64,000 nucleotides of DNA from a bacterium CG10_46_32 (GTDB taxonomy: Bacteria; Patescibacteriota; Patescibacteriia; UBA2169), in contig MOEI01000012.1 of assembly GCA_001889965.1 (NCBI GenBank), positions 1,170-65,169 of the forward strand, written 5' to 3'. Each line of letters starts with the position of its first letter. Position 1 is the first letter of the stretch. The position numbers were made by a program, and so were the translations under genes. Positions 10,679 through 22,150 of this stretch are shown piece after piece. The notes under the pieces were generated by a model that saw only the letters and a list, made by a program, of their open reading frames with translations, ran no database searches and had not been told where the DNA came from.

Positions 10679-11179
10679 TTAATCTTTTAAATACATCTTT
10701 TCCGAGAGCTCTTTTATATAATCCGCACGCATTACTTCCGATTTCCATGTTTCGGGTATACCATTGTACCCATAGTAACACCCGGATAATGCTCCGGCAA
10801 CTGCCGCAAACGTATCTGTATCCCCGCCCAATGTAATAACTTTTTTTATGCTGTCATAAAAAGTATCAGTAATCATTAAAGACCACAACGCGATCCGTAA
10901 TATATCAATGCAATACCCGGACACCGGAATACTATCCTTATTCAGCTTACTGTAATCTTCCACTAACACTCCCGCAACCTGTTCCGGCATATCTGAATAT
11001 ATACTAGACTTGTGGCCCGTGTTTAAGATGATAGCTAAGAGTTCCGCGTTGCGCAAAACATCCGGCCCCTCGCGCATGAGCCGCTCGCGCGGCCAGTCTT
11101 CCGTGGTCGGCTTGGATATGTCGTACCCTTTTTGTTGTGTTCCCTCCATATATGTTAATCGTACCTGCTGCATCAACAA
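10679..11179 (-). CDS. Chimeric ORF: RadC-like N-terminal segment joined to an ADP-ribosylglycohydrolase C-terminal segment
   Basis: N-terminus PRERLMREGPDVLRNAELLAIILNTGHK matches the RadC/UPF0758 HhH motif. C-terminus LGGDTDTFAAVAGALSGCYYGYNGIPETW matches the ARH (DraG-like) C-terminal signature. 166 aa is too short for either family. Confidence 0.5.
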   Translation of the reverse strand: MLMQQVRLTYMEGTQQKGYDISKPTTEDWPRERLMREGPDVLRNAELLAIILNTGHKSSIYSDMPEQVAGVLVEDYSKLNKDSIPVSGYCIDILRIALWSLMITDTFYDSIKKVITLGGDTDTFAAVAGALSGCYYGYNGIPETWKSEVMRADYIKELSEKMYLKD

Positions 11180-12980: not shown

Positions 12981-13232
12981 CTAATACACTCCCTGCCGAT
13001 GCCCAAACTCAATCACCACAACCAATAGCTCGTTCTTATAAATCTTGTATACAATCCGGTATGGCCATACCCGAAAAGAATATTGCCCCTCGCGTTTTCC
13101 GTGAAGTTTTTTGCCCAAAAAAGGATTGGCTTCAATCTCGCCAAGAATTTGCAATACACGCATCTGGTACTGCTTTGGCAGTTTATGTATGTTTTTTTGC
13201 GCCCTTGGTTCTACGCGCAGTTTGAACACCAT
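12981..13232 (-). CDS. RelE/ParE-family toxin
   Basis: 83-aa ORF MVFKLRVEPRAQKNIHKL... typical of RelE/ParE; downstream of a Phd/YefM gene. Confidence 0.65.
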   Translation of the reverse strand: MVFKLRVEPRAQKNIHKLPKQYQMRVLQILGEIEANPFLGKKLHGKREGQYSFRVWPYRIVYKIYKNELLVVVIEFGHRQGVY

Positions 13233-13545
13233 ATTTTTTTGCAGATTTATCGGCTACAACAAAACCAAAATCTTTTTTAAGATCATCAAGCGTTGCCCAT
13301 TTTTTATACTCACCGCTTTTAACAGCCTTGTCAGTTTCGGCAACATGTTTATCTAAGTCTGGAAAATCTCGCAGCACCTCCAATGTTTCCGCCCAAGACT
13401 CAAATTCTTCGGCGGACATTAACACCGCCTTAGGACGGCCGTTTTCCGTGAGTGTGTAGTACCTACCCGGTTTTTGCACGTCACGAGTGATGGTAAAAAT
13501 ATCTTTACGCGCCTGGGTTGTAGAGATAGTATGTTGAGTATTCAT
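13183..13545 (-). CDS. Phd/YefM-family antitoxin
   Basis: ISTTQARKDIFTITRDVQKPGRYYTLTENGRPKAVLMSAEEFESWAETLEVL matches the Phd/YefM core. The 3' end overlaps the toxin start by 50 nt in another frame, so the true C-terminus is uncertain. Confidence 0.75.
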   Translation of the reverse strand: MNTQHTISTTQARKDIFTITRDVQKPGRYYTLTENGRPKAVLMSAEEFESWAETLEVLRDFPDLDKHVAETDKAVKSGEYKKWATLDDLKKDFGFVVADKSAKKYGVQTARRTKGAKKHT

Positions 13546-13629
13546 ATATGTACATTATAGCGTACATTACAAAAAACACAAGATCTGCGCATGGATAGCG
13601 TATCCCCAGCTGCTCAATCGACTGAGCCG

Positions 13630-13905
13630 TTAAAGCTTTACATCAATCGCGCCCTCTGCGCCTTCCCCTATCTTGGCATCGCGAAACTCATAGTCTGCAT
13701 CGCGGAGCAAGGCGCGCACCGCATCACCTAGAACCGGGCCTTCTTTAGAATGGATACCGCGGCCCACGATAATGCGGACTAGGTTGTATCCCGCGTGTTC
13801 GCTCTCGCTTAAAAAAGCACGCACAGCAGCGCGCGCTTGATGTTGAGTGTGCTGATGCAGATCCAAAGTTGCCTGCGGTGTTTGGGCGTATTTGTTCATA
13901 CCCAA
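13630..13905 (-). CDS. Smr-domain protein
   Basis: TLDLHQHTQHQARAAVRAFL...RIIVGRGIHS Smr (small MutS-related) domain. Its first ~70 nt recur at 14690-14790 and 16195-16270. Confidence 0.7.
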   Translation of the reverse strand: MGMNKYAQTPQATLDLHQHTQHQARAAVRAFLSESEHAGYNLVRIIVGRGIHSKEGPVLGDAVRALLRDADYEFRDAKIGEGAEGAIDVKL

Positions 13906-14009
13906 ACTGTACGCTTCTCATTACTAAAAATCAACACAAGTCAGCCGCTATTCCAAATTAACCCATAAACTTAGAATAGTATTCCACTTTATGCAAAGTT
14001 AGGACATAA

Positions 14010-14040
14010 ATCTTGAATATAAAAACAACCGGATTAACCA
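14010..14040. terminator. Weak bidirectional hairpin terminator
   Basis: aaaaacaaccgg-atta-accagctgttttt imperfect stem with flanking A-run and T-run. Confidence 0.3.
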
Positions 14041-14082
14041 GCTGTTTTTATACTTCTTTAAAACGTACAATAAAGACGAAAT

Positions 14083-14346
14083 TTAGCACGCGGCAAAATC
14101 GTGCAAACGCCATGTGCTCCCTTTTTTCCTTGCTTCTACAACCCTGCCTCTTTGTGGATTAATATTTTCGGCAAGAGCGCGGCTTTCCTTATTGAAAGCT
14201 TCGTCGCCTTCTACGGTAATAATAACCCATCCCTTATTTGGAATTCTATTCATCAAATCAGGCTTCCTAATAATATATCTATCAAACTCATTAGACAGTT
14301 TGATATTCTTTTTTATAAATGTTTTAGACATACTGTTACGTTGCAT
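14083..14346 (-). CDS. Hypothetical protein (87 aa)
   Basis: ORF overlapping the upstream ORF by 11 nt; no recognised motif. Confidence 0.4.
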   Translation of the reverse strand: MQRNSMSKTFIKKNIKLSNEFDRYIIRKPDLMNRIPNKGWVIITVEGDEAFNKESRALAENINPQRGRVVEARKKGSTWRLHDFAAC

Positions 14347-14641
14347 ATAAATAATTTTCTTTTATTTTTTCGTAGCGCTGTGCAATATCACTCTTCATAC
14401 TGTCGAAAGCTGATTGACTATCCATATATATAGGAAATTTATATTCTTTCCCATTTTTATGATACACATGCTTATGCGGGGTTCCATACCAATTGTCTAC
14501 CCCAAGCACTGTCCTCCATCTGGATTGTATGAGGGCACGATACCGGATCGAAAATTGAACCAACTTGCCTCCCTTGGTCTCAAAGCTTATATGTAAAACA
14601 TCTATATCAGTCAAAGGATACTTATACTCTTTCTTAGGCAT
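14336..14641 (-). CDS. Hypothetical protein (101 aa)
   Basis: ORF immediately downstream of a truncated Smr N-terminal fragment; no recognised motif. Confidence 0.4.
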   Translation of the reverse strand: MPKKEYKYPLTDIDVLHISFETKGGKLVQFSIRYRALIQSRWRTVLGVDNWYGTPHKHVYHKNGKEYKFPIYMDSQSAFDSMKSDIAQRYEKIKENYLYAT

Positions 14642-14642
14642 C

Positions 14643-14762
14643 TTACTTTATTATCTATAGTATACAACAAAAATCTATATCATACAAATACGCGTTCGCT
14701 CCCACTCAAAAACGCGCGCACTGCGGCGCGCGCTTGATGTTGAGTGTGTTGGTGCAGATCCA
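14643..14762 (-). pseudogene. Truncated copy of the Smr gene 5' end (about 40 codons)
   Basis: Minus strand reads MYAQQVQTPQATLDLHQHTQHQARAAVRAFLSGSERVFV*, a near copy of the N-terminus of 13630-13905; DNA about 90% identical over 70 nt. Confidence 0.45.
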
Positions 14763-14908
14763 ATGTTGCCTGCGGTGTTTGCACTTGTTGGGCATACATT
14801 AGATGATGAGGAGAGCGGGTGAATTAAAACTTTGTGAAACCACTAAACACGGAATAACTCTCAATAAAGTACAATAAACAAATACCGGTGTTGCGTCAAC
14901 CATCTTCT

Positions 14909-15616
14909 TTATAAAAAACCGAACACTAGCATCATAATATTCAGAGCCAACAACACAAACACGATAACCCACATTGCTGCCAGAAAAAATTTATTCCAAA
15001 CCACTTTTTTTCTACGTAAAAACAAAAATATCAAATACCAAATTTCAAAAATAGATAGAGCGACAATACTGAATGCTGTTGAAAATTTTGCGATATAAAA
15101 CGAAGCGTCGTCGAACAACGCCATCATATAGCCCAGTCTTCGCGGAAACGCCAGACCGTCAAAAAGCATAATTACCGCAAATGATATAAGCAGTATCAAG
15201 GTAAGCCTCCGCCCGGAGTGACGATGTAGTTTCTGTATTCCGTTTTTAATAATTTCGCTTTTTCTTTTTTTCCTAAATTTTCTAATGACAATCGTTACAA
15301 CACAAGACAGCAGATACAAGTAGATAATCTCTATCGCCGCCATAATCCCAATCATCACACTCATCGGCCAGTCTAAATCGCCAAATACCATTTGCGGCAT
15401 GAGATAAATGAAATATGACGGAATAACTAATACCAGTCCTAGTACGCCAGCAATAAACGACGCAAAAGATACAGTGTCACAACCCAAGCTCATTATACAG
15501 CCGAACATAACCCCCATGATCAAAAAAATCGTTAGCGCGACCAAAACAACCAAAACTGCCATGACAATCAACTTCATCCGGGAAGGTTTAATAAATTTTA
15601 GTATTTTATCTTTCAT
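14909..15616 (-). CDS. Polytopic membrane protein (235 aa), last gene of the cassette array
   Basis: About 7 predicted hydrophobic helices; no recognised motif. Confidence 0.55.
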   Translation of the reverse strand: MKDKILKFIKPSRMKLIVMAVLVVLVALTIFLIMGVMFGCIMSLGCDTVSFASFIAGVLGLVLVIPSYFIYLMPQMVFGDLDWPMSVMIGIMAAIEIIYLYLLSCVVTIVIRKFRKKRKSEIIKNGIQKLHRHSGRRLTLILLISFAVIMLFDGLAFPRRLGYMMALFDDASFYIAKFSTAFSIVALSIFEIWYLIFLFLRRKKVVWNKFFLAAMWVIVFVLLALNIMMLVFGFL

Positions 15617-15672
15617 TTTGAGTTAATGGAAATTCTGCGCCGCTTTTTAAAGCATCTTTTACATGTCTTGGT

Positions 15673-15987
15673 CTACAGCCCTGTATAGTTGCTCCAAAGA
15701 GAGAAAACTAGCAATGAATATAAAGAGTAAATTACTAATCCCAATCCTACAAGTATGAATATAGTTGATAATATCCTATTATGCTTAACTTTATATCGAA
15801 AACCTTGAATACCGCCTACAAATAAATAAACTCCAACCAAAATAGACAGAACAACAATAACATTAATAACAACTCCATTATCAGATACAAAATTTCTATC
15901 CTGAAAAATAAAAACAATCAATCGCGGTACAATAACAAACAAAAACAGTACTAATAAAATAGTATTTCTTTTAAATAAATTTCTCAT
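15673..15987 (-). CDS. Small 3-TM membrane protein, cassette paralogue (ends ...SNYTGL)
   Basis: 104 aa; paralogous to 16302-16592 and 17237-17533 in size, hydropathy and C-terminal x(F/Y)TG(L/F) motif. Confidence 0.55.
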   Translation of the reverse strand: MRNLFKRNTILLVLFLFVIVPRLIVFIFQDRNFVSDNGVVINVIVVLSILVGVYLFVGGIQGFRYKVKHNRILSTIFILVGLGLVIYSLYSLLVFSLWSNYTGL

Positions 15988-16117
15988 ATGGTTCTATTTT
16001 TTAATAAACAAAACTTCTTAAAATATTCCAATCCAATGTAGAGTCGGGTAATCTGCCATAAACTTTGATAAAGCTGATTATACCCCGCTGTTCTGCGGAC
16101 ATATCTCTCACAGACGG

Positions 16118-16206
16118 CCGCAAGCCATATGCAATCATCATAACAGATTGATCGTTTTCTGCACCTGTGCTCTTTGCCTTTTGCTCGGCCTGCGCACTGC
16201 GGCGCG
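16118..16206. repeat. ~90-bp near-identical direct repeat, copy 1 (copy 2 at 16726-16810)
   Basis: Shared block gccgcaagccatatgcaatcatcataacagattgatcgttttctgcacctgtgctctttgccttttgctcggcctgcgcactgcg. Confidence 0.8.
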
Positions 16207-16270
16207 CGCTTGGTGTTGAGTGTGTTGATGCAGATCCAATGTTGCCTGCGGAGTTTGGGCGTATTTGTTG
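16195..16270 (-). repeat. Third copy of the Smr 5' gene fragment, embedded in the cassette array
   Basis: Minus strand encodes ...NKYAQTPQATLDLHQHTQHQARAAV with no start codon; DNA matches 13835-13905 and 14700-14790. Confidence 0.5.
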
Positions 16271-16301
16271 AGTATCAGGAAAGCTGGTCAAAAGATGAGG
16301 A

Positions 16302-16592
16302 TTAAAAACCCGTAAAGCCACTAAAAGCGAAGTAACCTAAAATAAAATAAATGAGAATGAGTGCAGGGGGAATGATAAATACTATTGAAACTTTTTGAGC
16401 ACTGTCTTTTAGTCGTATAGAAAATTTAACATTCATATAAACAAGATATACTGCCCCTAACAGCATAAAATAAATCAATGAATTTACATGTTTATCTGGC
16501 ATGCCTGGCTGATAAAAATTCTCATAAATAAACCAAGGTGACACAAGAAATATTATTATTAAAATAATATTTTTATAAACTAGTTTTTTCAT
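16302..16592 (-). CDS. Small 3-TM membrane protein, cassette paralogue (ends ...SGFTGF)
   Basis: 96 aa; paralogue of 15673-15987 and 17237-17533. Confidence 0.55.
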   Translation of the reverse strand: MKKLVYKNIILIIIFLVSPWFIYENFYQPGMPDKHVNSLIYFMLLGAVYLVYMNVKFSIRLKDSAQKVSIVFIIPPALILIYFILGYFAFSGFTGF

Positions 16593-16610
16593 ATTTTTTA
16601 TTATATTCTT

Positions 16611-17063
16611 TTAATAAACAAAACTTCTTAAAATATTCCAATCGAATGTAAAGCTTGGTAATCTACCATAGGTTCTAACGAAATTCACGAGTCCTTTTTG
16701 CTCCAACCCCATATCTCGCTTTAGCGGCCGCAAGCCATATGCAATCATCATAACAGATTGATCGTTTTCTGCACCTGTGCTCTTTGCCTTTTGCTCGGCC
16801 TGCGCACTGCGCTGACTTGGTAGATTGTTGGTGGAAATTTGTATCACATCACTCCAATCAACAGTGCTTGTAGGTAATCTGCCGAACGCCTCCTTAAATG
16901 AGTACAATACTCCAGCGCGCTCGCCTTGTCCTAAAGCCTGCGTACTCTTGGTGCCATAGGCAATAAACGCTATTGCTCCCCGATCAAACGAGAGCCCTTT
17001 ACCATAACGCTCTGCTACTGCTTGCTCTAAAGCGCTGTCCCTCGCTCTATCTAAATACGCCAT
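16611..17063 (-). CDS. C-terminal-module protein (units A+B, 150 aa, no signal peptide)
   Basis: Contains both repeat units found at the C-terminus of the 1237-aa protein (…IAYGTKSTQALGQGERAGVLYSFKEAFGRLPTSTVDW… and …IAYGLRPLKRDMGLEQKGLVNFVRTYGRLPSFTFDWNILRSFVY). Confidence 0.55.
   Translation of the reverse strand: MAYLDRARDSALEQAVAERYGKGLSFDRGAIAFIAYGTKSTQALGQGERAGVLYSFKEAFGRLPTSTVDWSDVIQISTNNLPSQRSAQAEQKAKSTGAENDQSVMMIAYGLRPLKRDMGLEQKGLVNFVRTYGRLPSFTFDWNILRSFVY
16726..16810. repeat. ~90-bp direct repeat, copy 2
   Basis: See 16118-16206. Confidence 0.8.
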
Positions 17064-17159
17064 GAATGTTTCGATATCTGCATTGGCAAGCGCGGATAAA
17101 ATTTCATCTTCTCTATGGATGCTTGCTGAATACGGGTTAAACGACGTAAATGGAATTAG

Positions 17160-17215
17160 AAATCAGTAAAACCACTAAAAGCGAAGTATCCTAAAATAAA
17201 ATAAATGAGAATTAA
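17160..17215 (-). pseudogene. Remnant 3' end of a small-membrane-protein gene (…LILIYFILGYFAFSGFTDF)
   Basis: DNA nearly identical to the 3' end of 16302-16592 (16310-16365) but with no upstream ORF; a recombination scar. Confidence 0.45.
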
Positions 17216-17236
17216 CACAGTAGGAATAATGTTGAA

Positions 17237-17533
17237 TTAGAGACCAGTAAAATTACTCAAAGCATAAATCATAACTAAAGCGTAAAGTGCGTACAACACC
17301 AACCCAAGACCCATAATAAAAAAAATAATTCGGCTCGTATTGCTCTCGAAATCAAAACGCTTTGCATTGATACGTACTAAATAAATTCCCGCCACCAGAA
17401 CAATAATAATCAAACCATATATAATTTTACTCCTAAGTTGAAAATCAAATATTCCAAATATGTACTTGTTAGCTAGATAAAGTACCACAACGAATAAGAC
17501 CGCGATTAAATTTTTATGTATCTTTTTTATCAT
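17237..17533 (-). CDS. Small 3-TM membrane protein, cassette paralogue (ends ...SNFTGL), cognate to the large protein
   Basis: 98 aa; starts 13 nt after the stop of the 1237-aa gene. Confidence 0.6.
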   Translation of the reverse strand: MIKKIHKNLIAVLFVVVLYLANKYIFGIFDFQLRSKIIYGLIIIVLVAGIYLVRINAKRFDFESNTSRIIFFIMGLGLVLYALYALVMIYALSNFTGL

Positions 17534-17545
17534 AATCCAACTTAC

Positions 17546-20500
17546 TTAATAAACAAAACTTCTTAAAATATTCCAATCCAACGTAGAACATGGGAGCTTG
17601 CCGTAGATCTCAATAAATCGCTCTATCCCTTGTCGCTCGGCATCTAGATCCCGCTTATCCGGCCGCAGACCGTAGGCAACCGTTATAATAGATTTCTCAT
17701 CATTCATACCCACATCTTTTGCTTTTCGCTCGGCGGCACCGCTTCGCTGAATTGGCGCTTGGTTGGTTGCAATTCGAATCACGTCATTCCAGTCTTCGCT
17801 TGTTGTGGGGAGGATGCCAAATGCCGCTTTATAGGAATACAGTACTCCGGCGCGCTCTCCGGTTCCAAGTTTTTGCGTGCTCTTGGTGCCATATGTGATA
17901 AAGTTGATGCCTGCCTGGTTCAAGCGAAGTGATCGGCCGTATTTTTGAGCTGTTTCCTGCTCCGAAAAAAAATTCCGTTCCAAACTAAGATAATCCAATA
18001 ACGTTTCAATATCACCATCGTGGAGAGCAGCCAGAATATCATCTTGCGTATACTGCTCGCTCTGTGCACGCTCTATTTTTACGCCAAGCACTTCCGGAGT
18101 TGAGGCAGATCCTGAATCAAGTCCAGGATGACGATTTGGCTCTTGAGTATTCTCATCTTGCGATTTGCCGGCAGGCGCGGCAGGTGTCGGCACAATAATG
18201 ACAGCCGGAGAATAAACATTGATCGTTTGAGTGTGGTAATCTTCCAGATTCCCTACTCTGTCCTTTGACCGGTACAGTACTGTATTATCGCCTATAGTGG
18301 TAAGTATAACCTGATTTTCGTAAGCGTGCCACGTGCTCCCGTTATCAAGACTATATTCTGTTTTTAAAACTCCAGAATTATCATCACTTGCCAAAAGCTC
18401 AAACGCGGCGGAAGACGCTCCACCAGAAACACTGATAGTAGTGGTTGGTTTTGTTATGTCCCCAGCCTGTGTACTGTTGAGGACCGCTGCCGCAGTAACC
18501 GGCGCAAAACTTCCCGTACCATTCGTATCCACCTGTAACGTGGTTCCACTAACGTCCGATGACAACGCTACCTGTGCACTGGTTGATTGATTCACTGGAA
18601 CATCAGTGTAATACGCAGTTTCGATGACCTGGTTGTTCACAACCTTGGAAACATACAGGCTGAATGTACCACTTCCGGTGCCGTCATGTTGAATATTGTA
18701 AGATGTAGAATCCGTGTTCGGTATAAAGATAAATTTATTATCTCCAATCTGCTCATAGGTTGCGCCTGGGATATTCAATTCAATATCTCCATTTTCGTCT
18801 GGACCGACATGGTTGCCGTTTGCATCATACACGTTTAAATTGACCGGACTGTGCACAGATACGACCTGACCGTTGAATACACACTGGCTGATGTCTTGAG
18901 AAATATCCGGCAATGACGAAGTGTCTAGCGTGCCGGTGATGATCTCTGTAATTAACTGCTTAATACTTGACTGGCTCGGCATGGTTGCGTGTTCAACGCC
19001 AATTGCATAAAATGTTTTGTTTGCCTGTATATCAATAGCAGTCGCGCTATCCAACGGAACTGTTCCGTCGCCTGCTACAAACTCAACACCATATTCTACT
19101 TTAACAAGTTCCTGGTTCCGGATGATAATTTTGCCGAGAGTTGCAGTGTCGCACCCCACAATATTATAGGCATCCATTCCAGTAGTATTAAAATCGTCCA
19201 AAGCATTGCTATGAAGATCATCTGCGCTCTGAACAAGAGAAAAGTTTAAGCCCTGGTTGACCAGATAATTATTTACCTCGTCATAAGTGTGGCTTTTTGG
19301 AATAGCTAGATTATAAAAGTATTTTCCGATTTCAGATATATATAGACTACTAGGCAACAACTGGTAAACTGACGCCATATTCTTTGTGATGCTTTTTATT
19401 TCAAGTTGGTTCATTATTAGACCCATACCCAAATTATCACCATACAGTAATACCTTTGCTGATTTAGGTGACCCTAAATGTGGCGTACCGACAAAGATCA
19501 TTTTATTAACTCTCGACGAAGAATTATCAAGAATATATTGTTTCAAAACTAGACCACCCATACTATGGGCGACAATATCGACTTTCTGACTACCCGTCTG
19601 TTGTATAACACTATCAATCTTATCGACTAAAAATTGACTTATTGATTGAATATTCAAACGCCAATCATAAGGGAATAAAAATAAATCAGTATTCTCCTGA
19701 TACCCAGCAGACTCAAAATCATTAATCAAACCATCCAAGTAATCAAAAATAGTACCACCAAAAATTGATGCTTTCCTAAAAATATCATCAACATAAACAG
19801 AATTATCGCTTGGAGACCCATCTTCATTCATAGACAAAGGATCCATATAGGATTCGGCGACCGAAATTGCCGTCCAAAGAAAATTTGGCCATAAAGTAAT
19901 ATCTCCTAAACCACCAAAAACTTCCTGCTTCAAAATCGTCCCGGCTATCCCCGGCACCAGAATAACAGGTACATTACGCACCTCAAACATTAACTCCCCA
20001 GACGATGGCAAGCGGACAGCAGACAACCCATCCGAAGTCTCAAAGTGGTAGGAATAGGAACCCTTAGGGAACACGCCGGCATTTGGAGTAAACTCAAACA
20101 GGCCATTGGACGACGTTGCCATAGGATACGCGCTATTGCCAACCACCAAGCGAACATACTGCGCAGAATCGCCATCAGAATCAGTAAATAAAATGCGGAA
20201 CACCGGAACATCCTGCCCTACAAAACTAATATCAGGCGATGCGCCATCAGCAGTATACCCATCCAAATCTTGGTACGATAAAACCGGCGCTTGGTTGGCG
20301 GGATCTTGGTTTGTCCAGGGGCTATAGGTTACATTCCCCACAATCACATCCCCGGTTCCAGAAGGATTGGACGCAATGGTCGGGCCGGAAGAACTGCCCC
20401 ACCAATTGTTCGTCATATCCAACGGGTCGTCGCCGGAGTAGAAAACCGCACTTTCTGAATTATCGTAAAAACTGGAACCTACAATAGACACGTGCGCTGG

Positions 20501-21259
20501 CACTACCGCGCCGCCGACGGCCAGCATGCCAATTTTATTGCCATAGAACAGCGTATCAACTACCGTCGTAAATGCGTCATTCTGTAATCGAAAGCCGGTT
20601 TGGGCGTTATCCCGAACCACAGAGTCCGCGATTGAAATAGTACTGCCAGTTGTGATGTTTTTGATACCCTCCCACACACTCTGTTCAATCACTGAGTGGT
20701 TCAGCGTAACTTCGCCGCCGGTTACCAACAGCATGGGCCAATTTGACTTGCCTCCATACCGGATAATGACATACTCTGCGTCCAACCTACCACTGACTGA
20801 CATCCGAAACCAATCCCCAGGAGAAGGCAGGGTCTCATTGCCGTCACTATTAGTATCTCCGCCGTACTCGTCGTCTTTTATGGAAGTGAACACCACTGGA
20901 GCAGATTCAATTCCGGCAATAATGAGCGTGCCGTCAATAAAAATCTGGAACTGCAATCCGGTCGGCATCTTGATAACTACCCCGGGTTCAATAGTAACCG
21001 TTGTATTAGCTGCCACTTTGATGGTTGTTGTCTGCGCGATATAGGGGCTGTTTGCGGCAGTGAGCGTGTATCCGTCTGGAAACGTATTATTCGGAAACGC
21101 AAGCGTGGTAGCTGCATGCGCGGGCGCAACCCACGCCAACGCGCACACAAAAAACACAGCAACAAAAATAATACTGTGCTGGATTGGTTTGATGATGTCT
21201 ATACTATGTCCCTCCATAATATAGTTACTGTACGCCCATGCTCCTAAAAAATCAAACAA
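17546..21259 (-). CDS. Large secreted multidomain protein: signal peptide, right-handed parallel beta-helix, LipA-type alpha/beta-hydrolase lipase, Ig-like region, tandem C-terminal repeat module
   Basis: Signal peptide with AHA-ATT cleavage site; PbH1-type repeats ending in the DMTNNWWG motif. PVILVPGIAGT ... VDIVAHSMGGLVLKQYI closely matches Bacillus LipA (AHSMGG nucleophile elbow). The C-terminal ~140 aa are two-plus-one ~50-aa repeats ending LDWNILRSFVY. Confidence 0.8.
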   Translation of the reverse strand: MFDFLGAWAYSNYIMEGHSIDIIKPIQHSIIFVAVFFVCALAWVAPAHAATTLAFPNNTFPDGYTLTAANSPYIAQTTTIKVAANTTVTIEPGVVIKMPTGLQFQIFIDGTLIIAGIESAPVVFTSIKDDEYGGDTNSDGNETLPSPGDWFRMSVSGRLDAEYVIIRYGGKSNWPMLLVTGGEVTLNHSVIEQSVWEGIKNITTGSTISIADSVVRDNAQTGFRLQNDAFTTVVDTLFYGNKIGMLAVGGAVVPAHVSIVGSSFYDNSESAVFYSGDDPLDMTNNWWGSSSGPTIASNPSGTGDVIVGNVTYSPWTNQDPANQAPVLSYQDLDGYTADGASPDISFVGQDVPVFRILFTDSDGDSAQYVRLVVGNSAYPMATSSNGLFEFTPNAGVFPKGSYSYHFETSDGLSAVRLPSSGELMFEVRNVPVILVPGIAGTILKQEVFGGLGDITLWPNFLWTAISVAESYMDPLSMNEDGSPSDNSVYVDDIFRKASIFGGTIFDYLDGLINDFESAGYQENTDLFLFPYDWRLNIQSISQFLVDKIDSVIQQTGSQKVDIVAHSMGGLVLKQYILDNSSSRVNKMIFVGTPHLGSPKSAKVLLYGDNLGMGLIMNQLEIKSITKNMASVYQLLPSSLYISEIGKYFYNLAIPKSHTYDEVNNYLVNQGLNFSLVQSADDLHSNALDDFNTTGMDAYNIVGCDTATLGKIIIRNQELVKVEYGVEFVAGDGTVPLDSATAIDIQANKTFYAIGVEHATMPSQSSIKQLITEIITGTLDTSSLPDISQDISQCVFNGQVVSVHSPVNLNVYDANGNHVGPDENGDIELNIPGATYEQIGDNKFIFIPNTDSTSYNIQHDGTGSGTFSLYVSKVVNNQVIETAYYTDVPVNQSTSAQVALSSDVSGTTLQVDTNGTGSFAPVTAAAVLNSTQAGDITKPTTTISVSGGASSAAFELLASDDNSGVLKTEYSLDNGSTWHAYENQVILTTIGDNTVLYRSKDRVGNLEDYHTQTINVYSPAVIIVPTPAAPAGKSQDENTQEPNRHPGLDSGSASTPEVLGVKIERAQSEQYTQDDILAALHDGDIETLLDYLSLERNFFSEQETAQKYGRSLRLNQAGINFITYGTKSTQKLGTGERAGVLYSYKAAFGILPTTSEDWNDVIRIATNQAPIQRSGAAERKAKDVGMNDEKSIITVAYGLRPDKRDLDAERQGIERFIEIYGKLPCSTLDWNILRSFVY

Positions 21260-21296
21260 AAAAACACCCCCGGCCGTTATGTGACGACCGGGGGAT
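21257..21296 (-). terminator. Intrinsic terminator after 21338-22150 (minus)
   Basis: cacccccggccg...cgaccggggg hairpin with adjacent A-run (U-run on the minus-strand transcript). Confidence 0.45.
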
Positions 21297-21337
21297 AAAA
21301 GTCATCGAGACCTTTCCTCCTTGTTGTGCGCTATGCA

Positions 21338-22150
21338 CTACCCCTCTGCATCCTCGCTTGATGCAACTCCAGACCACAGTACCAATTCATCTTCGACAAG
21401 CTGGCCGTAGTAGGGCTGGTGTGGCATATCCGGCACTACACTGAACAAGTAGCTACCCTCGCTACCGGAAACCGTCACGCAACCCCACATATCAGGACCA
21501 GGCGTGGCATCGTGAAAGATGATGTCCATCGGATCCACGTGTTCCTGCTCTATGATGGCAAGGACAATGGGTATACTGTCCTCCCACTGGTACCTGTTGC
21601 CAGCTGCAACCTTAGCAAACAAGCACGTGCCGTGATCCAGGAATGTATAGAGTGCAAAACTACAGTCATCATGCAAGTTGGAAGATGCGGGATCTTGATA
21701 CGCAACCTCACGAAACTCAATTGGCCGAGTAGAACCCTTGGAAACTTTGAGCTCCTCTTGTGCGCTGATCTTTTTGAGTAATCCCGCGAATGCCTCCTGA
21801 ATACGCAAGCTACACCGTTCCCACGTGAATCCAGAAACCACGAACGGCGTTTCTTCGTCCACATCGCAGTACACAGTGAGCATGCGGTACCACGATTCAT
21901 CTGGCGTGATTGTTTCGTGCACACGCCGCGTGCATAGTTCAAAAAACACCGTCTCGGAAACATCGAGCCCCTCAACTTGAGCGAGATTTTCCACCACAAT
22001 GGTGGGGTCGTATGAATTCTCCATCCAGCACTCAAGCACATACACACACTCGCCTCCCTGTGCAACATACCAACCGCTGCCCATTACTTCAACACAATAG
22101 TCAGGGCTTTCTGCGGCAAGTATCGTAAAATACTTTGGCCAGCCTTCCAT
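21338..22150 (-). CDS. Hypothetical acidic cytoplasmic protein (270 aa), GC-rich
   Basis: Long ORF with distinctly higher GC than its neighbours; no recognised motif. Confidence 0.5.
   Translation of the reverse strand: MEGWPKYFTILAAESPDYCVEVMGSGWYVAQGGECVYVLECWMENSYDPTIVVENLAQVEGLDVSETVFFELCTRRVHETITPDESWYRMLTVYCDVDEETPFVVSGFTWERCSLRIQEAFAGLLKKISAQEELKVSKGSTRPIEFREVAYQDPASSNLHDDCSFALYTFLDHGTCLFAKVAAGNRYQWEDSIPIVLAIIEQEHVDPMDIIFHDATPGPDMWGCVTVSGSEGSYLFSVVPDMPHQPYYGQLVEDELVLWSGVASSEDAEG

Follow-up and report, generated by a model that had tools for sequence, protein, structure and literature searches.

The orphan arrays of Rhs, contact-dependent growth inhibition (CDI) as well as type VI secretion system (T6SS) loci have a common layout, in which the gene of a large secreted protein is followed by a small gene, and 5'-truncated fragments of the 3' end of the large gene are each followed by an intact small gene in the same orientation. 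In these arrays the older modules are shifted downstream by newer ones, the identity between modules is mosaic, and a combination of homology-facilitated illegitimate recombination (HFIR) and homologous recombination has been proposed. The displacement of rhs-CT/rhsI and cdiA-CT/cdiI modules (CT, C-terminal module) goes back to Jackson 2009, Poole 2011 and Koskiniemi 2014, as cited in PMC5361080, and that of V. cholerae T6SS modules to Kirchberger 2017 (PMC5361080); sequential displacement by HFIR has been proposed for the effector-immunity arrays of the latter and for rhs loci (PMC5361080). In HFIR, as summarised in PMC3240628 for natural transformation (de Vries and Wackernagel 2002, Prudhomme 2002, Meier and Wackernagel 2003), one end of the incoming DNA is anchored by homology and the other is joined at a microhomology near the anchor, typically of 3-10 bp (PMC3240628); what results is an insert that has the resident gene, now truncated, at its flank. 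In this work we analyzed a 64-kb stretch of contig MOEI01000012.1 (hereafter the window) from the patescibacterium CG10_46_32, in which a secreted lipase gene and a gene with an Smr domain enclose an interval rich in repeats. We consider it probable that this interval is a hypervariable cassette locus, and that its repeats are non-functional scars of serial, Smr-anchored additions of DNA; most likely, these additions came at least partly from sister strains.

Every gene in 12.9-21.3 kb is carried by the minus strand, and the biology of the locus consequently runs from high to low coordinates. In this direction the lipase gene ends in a CT (cassette A) and is followed by the small gene M1; downstream of this pair lie two orphan cassettes, CT-B (~170 codons) with M2 and CT-C (67 codons) with M3. 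A gene for a 235-aa membrane protein and the gene pair DUF7718-DUF5647 come next, and the intact Smr gene closes the interval. Two truncated 5' copies of Smr interrupt the series, stub 3 in front of CT-C and stub 2 in front of DUF7718. Repeats were sought by self-BLAST of 13.5-21.4 kb against the whole window, with shuffled sequences as the control for the Smr core, and the locus was compared with L003-L008, L013, L017/L018, L019, L022 and L023, which are loci of relatives or contigs of the same strain.

The copies of the Smr 5' end carry much of the argument. With up to three mismatches, a 54-nt core is present only at 13831-13884, 14728-14781 and 16204-16257, and shuffles gave 0 matches; the three copies announced by the original prediction are therefore real and, as holds for all the repeats, far outside what chance would give, and there are no further ones across the 64-kb window. 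By self-BLAST, copies 1 and 2 are 87.9% identical over 91 nt (13794-13884 / 14691-14781), copies 1 and 3 92.2% over 77 nt (13820-13896 / 16193-16269), and copies 2 and 3 95.5% over 66 nt (14716-14781 / 16192-16257). Copy 1 is the live gene: it matches the Smr domain (PF01713) with 57 bits against a cutoff of 25.7, its residues 14-91 correspond to positions 1-76 of the 77 in the profile, and its orthologues are 66-76% identical. Copies 2 and 3 hold only codons 1-~37 and 1-27, respectively, and are not intact Smr open reading frames (ORFs). The loci of the relatives contain no extra Smr N-terminal fragments.

The stubs also differ from the live gene in their start and in what precedes them. In stub 2 the MPNKY start known from L007 and L018 is kept (ATGCCCAACAAGT), and a 4-nt deletion comes after it. 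In stub 3 the start is degraded to ATA CTC and the ATG is lost; it reads ATACTCAAC, two substitutions off ATGCCCAAC. The live gene has the MNKY form, the same as in L008. The spacers preceding both stubs can be aligned to those between M and Smr in L007 and L018; the 178 nt upstream of the live Smr (13906-14082) are not homologous to this ancestral spacer. In a three-way 65-nt core, all seven variable sites are synonymous third positions, and one identical peptide, QTPQATLDLHQHTQHQARAAV, is encoded. Stub 2 and live Smr show 11 differences in 30 codons, nine of them synonymous third-position changes (P=0.0014 for at least 9 of 11 on third positions if random by codon position), and the two replacements fall at residues that also vary among orthologues. 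About nine changes in some thirty third positions amount to a substantial silent divergence. This test rests on few sites, and for stub 3 against stub 2, with three differences, it has no power. Drift of a pseudogene would give many changes at first and second positions; given that few are seen, most of the divergence predates truncation, and the stubs are best read as remnants of earlier Smr alleles. So, from few sites, stubs and live gene appear to have diverged mostly as working alleles, and the stubs are probably not simple duplicates, made within this genome, of the present Smr. The latter is best read as having arrived together with DUF7718-DUF5647 and the new upstream region. Of the repeated duplication originally proposed, the repeats and scars hold; the stubs themselves, with 9/11 synonymous changes and ancestral spacers, are probably earlier Smr alleles.

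It had also been suggested that the 5' region of Smr might act as a portable module that supplies a promoter or a start. No promoter-like site was found in any of the three copies, the shared segment starts at the start codon and hence downstream of any promoter, and the starts of copies 2 and 3 are damaged, so this suggestion, and with it the promoter module as a candidate, was dropped. A broader version, in which the segment would be a functional element (promoter/start module, terminator or attenuator) co-opted at each site, can point to a GC-rich, terminator-like hairpin with a T-run in copies 1 and 2 (13836..13817 and 14733..14714, minus strand, Smr codons ~22-33), the only kind of signal present in the copies, and to 12 terminator-like sites in the region against 3.6 expected, most of them in the Smr copies. 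The hairpin of stub 2 is the stronger one; it has 8 pairs, of which 7 are GC, lies ~70 nt upstream of where DUF7718 starts, and could act as an accidental terminator that insulates the inserted module. Nevertheless, copy 3 has neither start codon nor hairpin 3' arm and T-run, and is out of frame with the abutting CT-C; the hairpin is not conserved in the Smr orthologues of L007, L013 and L018, Rfam gave nothing at threshold (the sole match was Leu_leader, with 23 bits against a gathering cutoff of 50, E=0.13), and neither the rest of the window nor viral contigs contain a further copy. We therefore hold a co-opted element to be very improbable. A conserved RNA element or attenuator was rejected because the hairpin is absent from orthologues and without an Rfam match, and it seems incidental to Ala/Arg/Phe/Leu codons. 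A mobile element or phage att site was rejected as well, since the core is unmatched in viral contigs, has no other copy in the window and has left no extra fragments in the relatives. As far as their sequences tell, the Smr stubs, duplicated blocks and stranded gene ends look like dead leftovers.

The second line of evidence is the junction J2, at which stub 3 is fused at codon 26 to the CT-C fragment. It lies on a 10-nt microhomology, CGCAGTGCGC, which is common to Smr codons ~24-27 and to the CT sequence. From J2 onward in gene direction, CT-B and CT-C form a mosaic, with 100% identity over 87 nt, 57% over ~75 nt, and again 100% over 33 nt. The first of these segments (16115-16201 / 16725-16811) confirms the near-identical ~90-bp blocks of the original prediction; self-BLAST joins the two regions at 78% over ~269 nt (15939-16201 / 16543-16811). 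The 106-aa ORF at this place consists of CT-C and a junk N-terminus, to which, as had been noticed, the Smr fragment contributes; this part does not come from the reverse frame but from the same strand shifted by one base, and includes the M2 3' end along with Smr stub 3. The homology of CT-B to the lipase C-terminus extends ~20 codons upstream of the ATG of its 150-aa ORF, to ~17120. The Smr 5' region served as a junction a second time at ~codon 37 (copy 2), where the 39-codon ORF is fortuitous.

The 33-nt segment is identical at all positions (33/33) in 16001-16033, 16611-16643 and 17546-17578, and its flanks are only 55-61% identical; self-BLAST extends it to 42 nt at 97.6% between 16001-16042 and 17546-17587. 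Outside these 33 nt, cassette A is likewise only 55-61% identical to B and C. The block had been described as 32 nt that follow the stop codons of the three modules; it is indeed present three times, but since the genes lie on the minus strand it is made up of the last 10 CT codons (DWNILRSFVY) and the stop of the three CT modules. Relatives deviate from it at 3-6 of the 33 positions, so that its identity within this genome reflects concerted evolution and not an absolute constraint on the nucleotides; by this comparison, the 33-nt end of CT appears to mark concerted evolution (gene conversion) at the seam between CT and M. A seam of this kind, together with the other shared blocks, would also permit programmed switching, in which CT-B/M2 and CT-C/M3 would be silent cassettes that recombine into the lipase 3' end and bring about antigenic or partner variation of a surface lipase. 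The 33/33 identity against flanks of 55-61%, the intact M genes behind truncated CT fragments, and a 1-kb contig (L003) with a rearranged junction in the array agree with such a role. Yet at least eight assemblies from different samples are collinear at 99.95-100% through the array, no recombinase, invertase or reverse transcriptase is encoded within 7-10 kb, and cassette A has only the 33-42-nt seam in common with B and C, so that a crossover there deletes rather than switches; the junction in L003 is an inverted fold-back at a 14-nt AT-rich repeat, as is typical of chimeric artefacts. Switching is thus improbable. A shufflon or phase-variation switch was rejected, given that all copies are direct repeats, no recombinase is found nearby and at least eight assemblies are collinear.

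The collinear contigs also bear on whether the window itself is a chimeric or collapsed assembly. A 72-kb ENA contig is 100% identical to it across 20.4 kb and a 23-kb JGI contig across 15.5 kb. Contigs of JGI 3300025142, 3300004208, 3300025850 and 3300007987, of ENA ERZ27293400, ERZ27293414 and ERZ27293358, and of Logan SRR6240784 are collinear with the window, and in this set (at least eight samples, three sources or pipelines) identity is 99.95-100% over the junctions that each covers, most contigs starting inside the array, downstream of the 17.1-17.2 kb junctions. Public contigs of the same strain do end inside the array, at 16981 twice (L026, L034), at 14658 twice (L035, L036), at 16174 and at 14886, which means that the repeats fragment assemblies and speaks for an artefact. 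Against it, the independent assemblies agree base for base at the junctions covered, the longest perfect repeat, 87 nt, is shorter than the k=141 used and than typical reads, and the Smr copies are 5-12% apart, for which reason a collapse into one repeat is not expected. The chance that the region is an assembly artefact is accordingly almost negligible, and the comparison of assemblies decides the doubt raised along with the original prediction in favour of genuine repeats. The repeated contig breaks could be repeat-induced breaks of the assembly graph or strain-level structural variation upstream of CT-B. The contig L003 (ENA ERZ27293362 k141_322487, 1008 nt), from another sample, maps to 17263..16591 and then to 17313..17661, and so joins 16591, the start of M2, in inverted orientation to 17313, inside M1; the joint is an imperfect inverted repeat of 14 nt, rich in AT. 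This contig could represent a rare inversion of 16591-17312, but we regard a fold-back chimera as probable.

The small genes that accompany the CT modules also bear the marks of displacement. M1-M3 encode proteins of 96-104 aa with three hydrophobic spans each by hydropathy, and Pfam and NCBIfam searches gave no family assignment for them. There is essentially no alignment to be made between M2 and M3, and a search of 1.84 billion representative proteins gave only 5 clusters related to M2. The GC content of M genes is 25-33% (15650-16100, 16400-16700, 17150-17600) versus 45-53% for the lipase, CT and Smr genes, and 45-50% for the lipase gene taken singly; judging from this, they are presumably very fast-evolving or foreign small membrane genes. 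Straight behind the M1 stop, and in frame, lies tail 1, a stranded end that had been reported as the last 19 codons of a membrane-protein gene. It is real, and self-BLAST matches it to the 3' end of M2 with 84% identity across 76 nt (16301-16376 / 17155-17230), but it comprises 26 codons and a stop (17156-17236); we take it to be the remnant of a displaced M gene. Tail 2, which is absent from the original prediction, is found just upstream of Smr stub 2 in gene direction. Nearer to the live Smr, the DUF7718 and DUF5647 genes overlap by 11 nt (Pfam E=7e-13 and 6e-15), and in none of the relatives examined does this pair lie upstream of Smr. In its arrangement the pair resembles a toxin-antitoxin-style two-gene module inserted as a unit.

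The relatives offer simpler versions of the same interval. L007, the only metagenome match to Smr, carries CT, M (102 aa), a 28-nt spacer, the full Smr gene and RadC; L017/L018 have M (101 aa), a 43-nt spacer and Smr. Among the more distant genomes, L013 keeps the order lipase-M...Smr with seven unrelated genes between, and L008 keeps it with four other genes, another M and an orphan CT that had not been called (3145-3519); L022 and L023 show just the lipase and an M of the M2 type. Since relatives carry varied genes between lipase and Smr, the interval is a lineage-wide hotspot with CT-M-Smr as its simplest form. The M2 type is the partner of the lipase in L013, L022 and L023, and in the window it is displaced downstream, behind the 5'-truncated CT-B. 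The orphan layout is found again in L008, and CT modules or remnants followed by small transmembrane (TM) genes are present in L004/L005 (160-aa modules) and L006 (a 47-codon remnant before the TM gene). The pairing of CT with M seems specific to the lineage with the DWNILRS ending, as nothing similar to M lies downstream of a distant gene that bears a CT (L019) and a genome scan found the DWNILRS ending at only 3 loci.

These observations can be arranged in a model that begins with the state seen in relatives, i.e. lipase...CT, M, a ~30-nt spacer and Smr. Incoming DNA with new cargo and an Smr allele would come from sister strains, and in one case possibly from the same chromosome. One of its ends would be resolved by homologous recombination in or beyond Smr, and the other by an illegitimate join slightly upstream, inside the 5' end of the resident Smr; the mode would be HFIR or its equivalent, a circularised fragment that integrates by a single crossover. 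Each event would leave a 5' stub of the prior Smr allele with the old M tail and spacer, and would place new genes between the stub and a fresh Smr copy, shifting the older cassettes upstream. In the older event stub 3, which lies farther from Smr, would have been fused to CT-C at the 10-nt microhomology, with the addition of CT-C, M3, the 235-aa gene and tail 2; the younger event would have left stub 2 and brought in the DUF7718-DUF5647 pair together with the present Smr. On the lipase side of the interval, new CT and M cassettes would enter at the lipase 3' end and push the older ones downstream, giving rise to the truncated CT-B and to tail 1. By analogy, this lipase-end pattern is the C-terminal displacement signature of rhs, CDI and V. 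cholerae T6SS loci.

The arrangement of old upstream sequence, truncated 5' stub, new cargo and full gene is the one expected from a one-sided, homology-anchored integration. At J2 the microhomology lies inside the Smr 5' end and adjoins the Smr homology, which here, with the sequence beyond it, would be the anchor; its 10 nt are at the top of the 3-10 bp range given for HFIR. Two junctions in the Smr 5' end, the microhomology at J2 and relatives with an unscarred CT-M-Smr thus uphold the idea that these are recombination scars with the Smr 5' region as a recurring junction. Codons 22-28 of Smr form a GC-rich patch (GCGCGCGCCGCAGTGCGCGC) in otherwise AT-rich DNA, and the clustering of junctions there is probably explained by Smr being the conserved right flank, with a GC-rich patch beside low-GC M genes. 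The case differs from described HFIR in that it is inferred here from scars alone, and in that DNA was added and the stub kept, instead of the typical paired insertion and deletion. Single-crossover (Campbell-type, insertion-duplication) integration of a circularised fragment yields the same pattern (PMC3240628), a truncated 5' copy, the insert and a full copy, as for stub 2, DUF7718-DUF5647 and Smr, but it needs a circular intermediate with only Smr codons ~2-37 and predicts hybrid repeats.

Several points weigh against this reading. No donor sequence was found, as the metagenome scan with Smr returned L007 only and a word-indexed protein search returned 4 relatives, and exact-protein look-ups for DUF7718 and M3 returned the same strain only; import is hence something that we infer and do not observe. 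The synonymous excess is partly expected anyway on the branch of the live gene, and the codon-position test has few sites. The 87-nt identity of CT-B and CT-C at J2 and the 610-nt spacing of the repeats favour a tandem duplication within the chromosome for the older event, and this appears to fit at least as well as import; it then requires that the CT tip, M and the part downstream were replaced at a later time, given the 57% block, the unalignable M3 and tail 2 at 69%. Finally, tail 2 is only 69% identical to the M2 tail and the adjacent stubs are 95% identical, so that an extra step of replacement or conversion is needed. The order of events can be followed only in part: a comparison of orthologous loci, proposed earlier for rebuilding it, did provide the unscarred CT-M-Smr (L007, L017/L018), but the Smr copies conflict at two sites in their branching order (CAT is common to copies 1 and 3, CAA to copies 2 and 3), and the full order is thereby not resolvable.

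The tandem duplication may be extended to the whole locus. Microhomology-mediated duplications of the unit formed by the CT 3' part, M, spacer and Smr 5' end, followed by divergence, conversion and local deletions, would then account for everything with no foreign DNA. Direct repeats spaced 610 nt, a perfect 87-nt identity that begins exactly at the junction, the 10-nt microhomology, and a 33-nt block identical in three cassettes, which suggests ongoing conversion within the genome, are what such a history would leave. However, M2 and M3 can hardly be aligned and CT tips at 57% stand beside blocks of perfect identity; between stub 2 and live Smr there are ~9 synonymous and 2 non-synonymous changes in 30 codons, where a long-term pseudogene would show more of the latter; the live Smr has a non-ancestral upstream region and starts as MNKY rather than MPNKY; and the DUF7718-DUF5647 cargo has no source elsewhere in the window. 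A purely intragenomic origin is for these reasons rather unlikely. Smr-anchored addition remains the preferred reading, with the synonymous bias (9/11, from few sites), the different upstream region and the different start type as signs that stub 2 and live Smr are distinct alleles. The features of the locus are collected in Table 1.

Table 1. Features of the lipase-Smr interval, listed in gene direction (high to low coordinates); positions are those of the window
Feature	Position	Strand	Basis
Lipase, 1237 aa, secreted, LCAT/PGAP1-type (alpha/beta-hydrolase domain), with beta-helix region; last ~150 aa = CT (cassette A)	17546..21259	-	Pfam LCAT E=1.2e-24
M1, 98-aa 3-TM protein, current partner of the lipase gene	17237..17533	-	ORF, hydropathy; no Pfam/NCBIfam match
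Stranded M tail 1, M2-type, 26 codons + stop, translation FNIIPTVLILIYFILGYFAFSGFTDF then stop	17156..17236	-	84% to M2 3' end over 76 nt
Orphan CT-B, 5'-truncated copy of the lipase C-terminus	16611..17120	-	Aligns to lipase residues ~1069-1237; 55% to main-gene CT
150-aa ORF inside CT-B	17063..16611	-	ORF list
M2, 96-aa 3-TM protein	16302..16592	-	ORF, hydropathy; lipase-partner type in L013, L022, L023
Smr 5' stub copy 3, codons 1-27, ancestral M-Smr spacer in front	16193..16275	-	92% to live Smr over 77 nt; alignment to L007, L018
Junction J2, 10-nt microhomology, plus strand GCGCACTGCG, minus strand CGCAGTGCGC	16192..16201	.	Multiple alignment of cassettes A, B, C and L007
Orphan CT-C, final 67 codons of CT module	16001..16201	-	Cassette alignment, translation
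87-nt block, identical to 16725-16811 in CT-B	16115..16201	-	Block comparison
33-nt block, DWNILRSFVY + stop, seam between CT and M gene	16001..16033	-	Identical at 16611-16643, 17546-17578
M3, 104-aa 3-TM protein	15673..15987	-	ORF, hydropathy
235-aa multi-pass membrane protein gene, cargo without CT fragment in front	14909..15616	-	ORF, hydropathy
Stranded M tail 2, last ~15 codons + stop (YFIESYSVFSGFTKF then stop), no ORF in front	14824..14871	-	69% to M2 tail over 51 nt
Smr 5' stub copy 2, codons 1-~37, ancestral spacer in front	14691..14799	-	Self-BLAST, translation, spacer alignment
DUF7718 (101 aa)	14641..14336	-	Pfam match
DUF5647 (87 aa)	14346..14083	-	Pfam match; weak winged-helix match
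Intact Smr gene (copy 1), ATG at 13899	13630..13905	-	Pfam Smr E=2.3e-15 over full domain
Phd/ParE genes, after Smr in gene direction		-	Gene order

In spite of the common layout, the CT modules differ from those of polymorphic toxin arrays. Here CT is no polymorphic toxin tip but a conserved helical domain of two repeats, with 50-70% identity from one relative to another; its most conserved block lies at the extreme 3' end, and it recurs on many unrelated surface-type proteins of the Candidate Phyla Radiation (CPR). In the relatives it is as conserved as the rest of the lipase (46-62%), whose orthologues in L008, L013, L022 and L023 are 46-53% identical. A profile search returned at least 121 homologues, usually of 350-410 aa; every one with a source name belongs to the Patescibacteria/CPR group or to another bin of uncultured bacteria. 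Precomputed Pfam domains exist for a few of them and are of the Ig-like, fn3, TIG or ice-binding type. No toxin Pfam match and no PDB analogue were found for CT, and the 1237-aa lipase contains no demarcation motif of the VENN or PxxxxDPxGL type. This distribution points to a widespread, uncharacterised C-terminal domain of the CPR. The polymorphic toxin arrays have cognate immunity genes; the small genes at this locus encode 3-TM proteins without an assigned family. The host belongs to the Patescibacteria, and no CDI, Rhs or T6SS machinery was seen nearby.

Integron cassette arrays are similar in that small promoterless cassettes lie in one orientation and the older ones are displaced along the array, and dissimilar in that the junctions here are inside coding sequences. 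An integron was rejected, because no integrase is present among the genes called in 6611-27063 and no attC-like imperfect inverted repeats were found in 13000-21500, where only two weak, irrelevant ones occur. A diversity-generating retroelement was also rejected, as the mismatches are mixed (T/A, T/C, G/A, A/T) and not adenine-specific, and no reverse transcriptase is found among the genes called in 6611-27063.

A further, tentative idea concerns what the cassettes might do, and we consider it doubtful for the present. The variable tip of CT (~27 residues before DWNILRSFVY) and the hypervariable M could form a co-evolving pair, attached to a secreted LCAT-type lipase of an episymbiotic lineage of Patescibacteria, in which M would be immunity-like or a membrane anchor of the CT domain; the intact orphan M genes would then be kept for their function, in the way of orphan immunity genes, and populations would trade cassettes by Smr-anchored, one-sided recombination. 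If this were true, the cassettes would make up a polymorphic effector/partner system whose basis is a CPR-specific domain not described so far.

Taken for what it is, the locus is a new example of a known architecture, a well-resolved case of ordinary genome scarring in an unusual organism. The succession of insertions is written in its truncated genes, in its junctions at microhomologies and in its displaced cassettes. Its value is modest; it gives concrete evidence of how the ultra-small genomes of CPR/Patescibacteria acquire accessory genes and pile them up at one fixed hotspot, and the pattern of gain fits homology-anchored uptake of DNA from sister strains. The main interest lies in the organism and in the CT/M modules, and the lineage-specific lipase/CT/M cassette system and the CPR C-terminal domain may deserve a study of their own. 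For annotation, the 106-aa and 39-aa ORFs should be taken as junction artefacts, and the 150-aa ORF as a truncated orphan lipase C-terminus rather than an independent gene.

Other genes around the CT-M cassettes were observed in the course of the comparison. In the relatives a restriction-modification unit lies beside or between the cassettes (L005 1039-3844, L004 7081-9886, L006 858-3421; between two of them in L005). It consists of a helix-turn-helix gene, an endonuclease of the MvaI/BcnI type and a fusion protein of 621-625 aa, in which a LexA-like DNA-binding domain and an S24 peptidase are fused to an N6/N4 methyltransferase, an unusual combination. On the other side of Smr, the intact RadC gene of L007 directly follows Smr; in the window the two are set apart by Phd/ParE, by a PIF1 helicase and by a cold-shock gene (10.7-13.6 kb). 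The 166-aa ORF at 10679-11179 (minus strand) is chimeric, with the N-terminus of a RadC protein (UPF0758_N) joined to a C-terminal portion from an ADP-ribosylglycohydrolase; this chimera and the intervening genes indicate that the scarred zone reaches downstream of Smr. In L005, a stranded RadC fragment is located in front of Phd/ParE.

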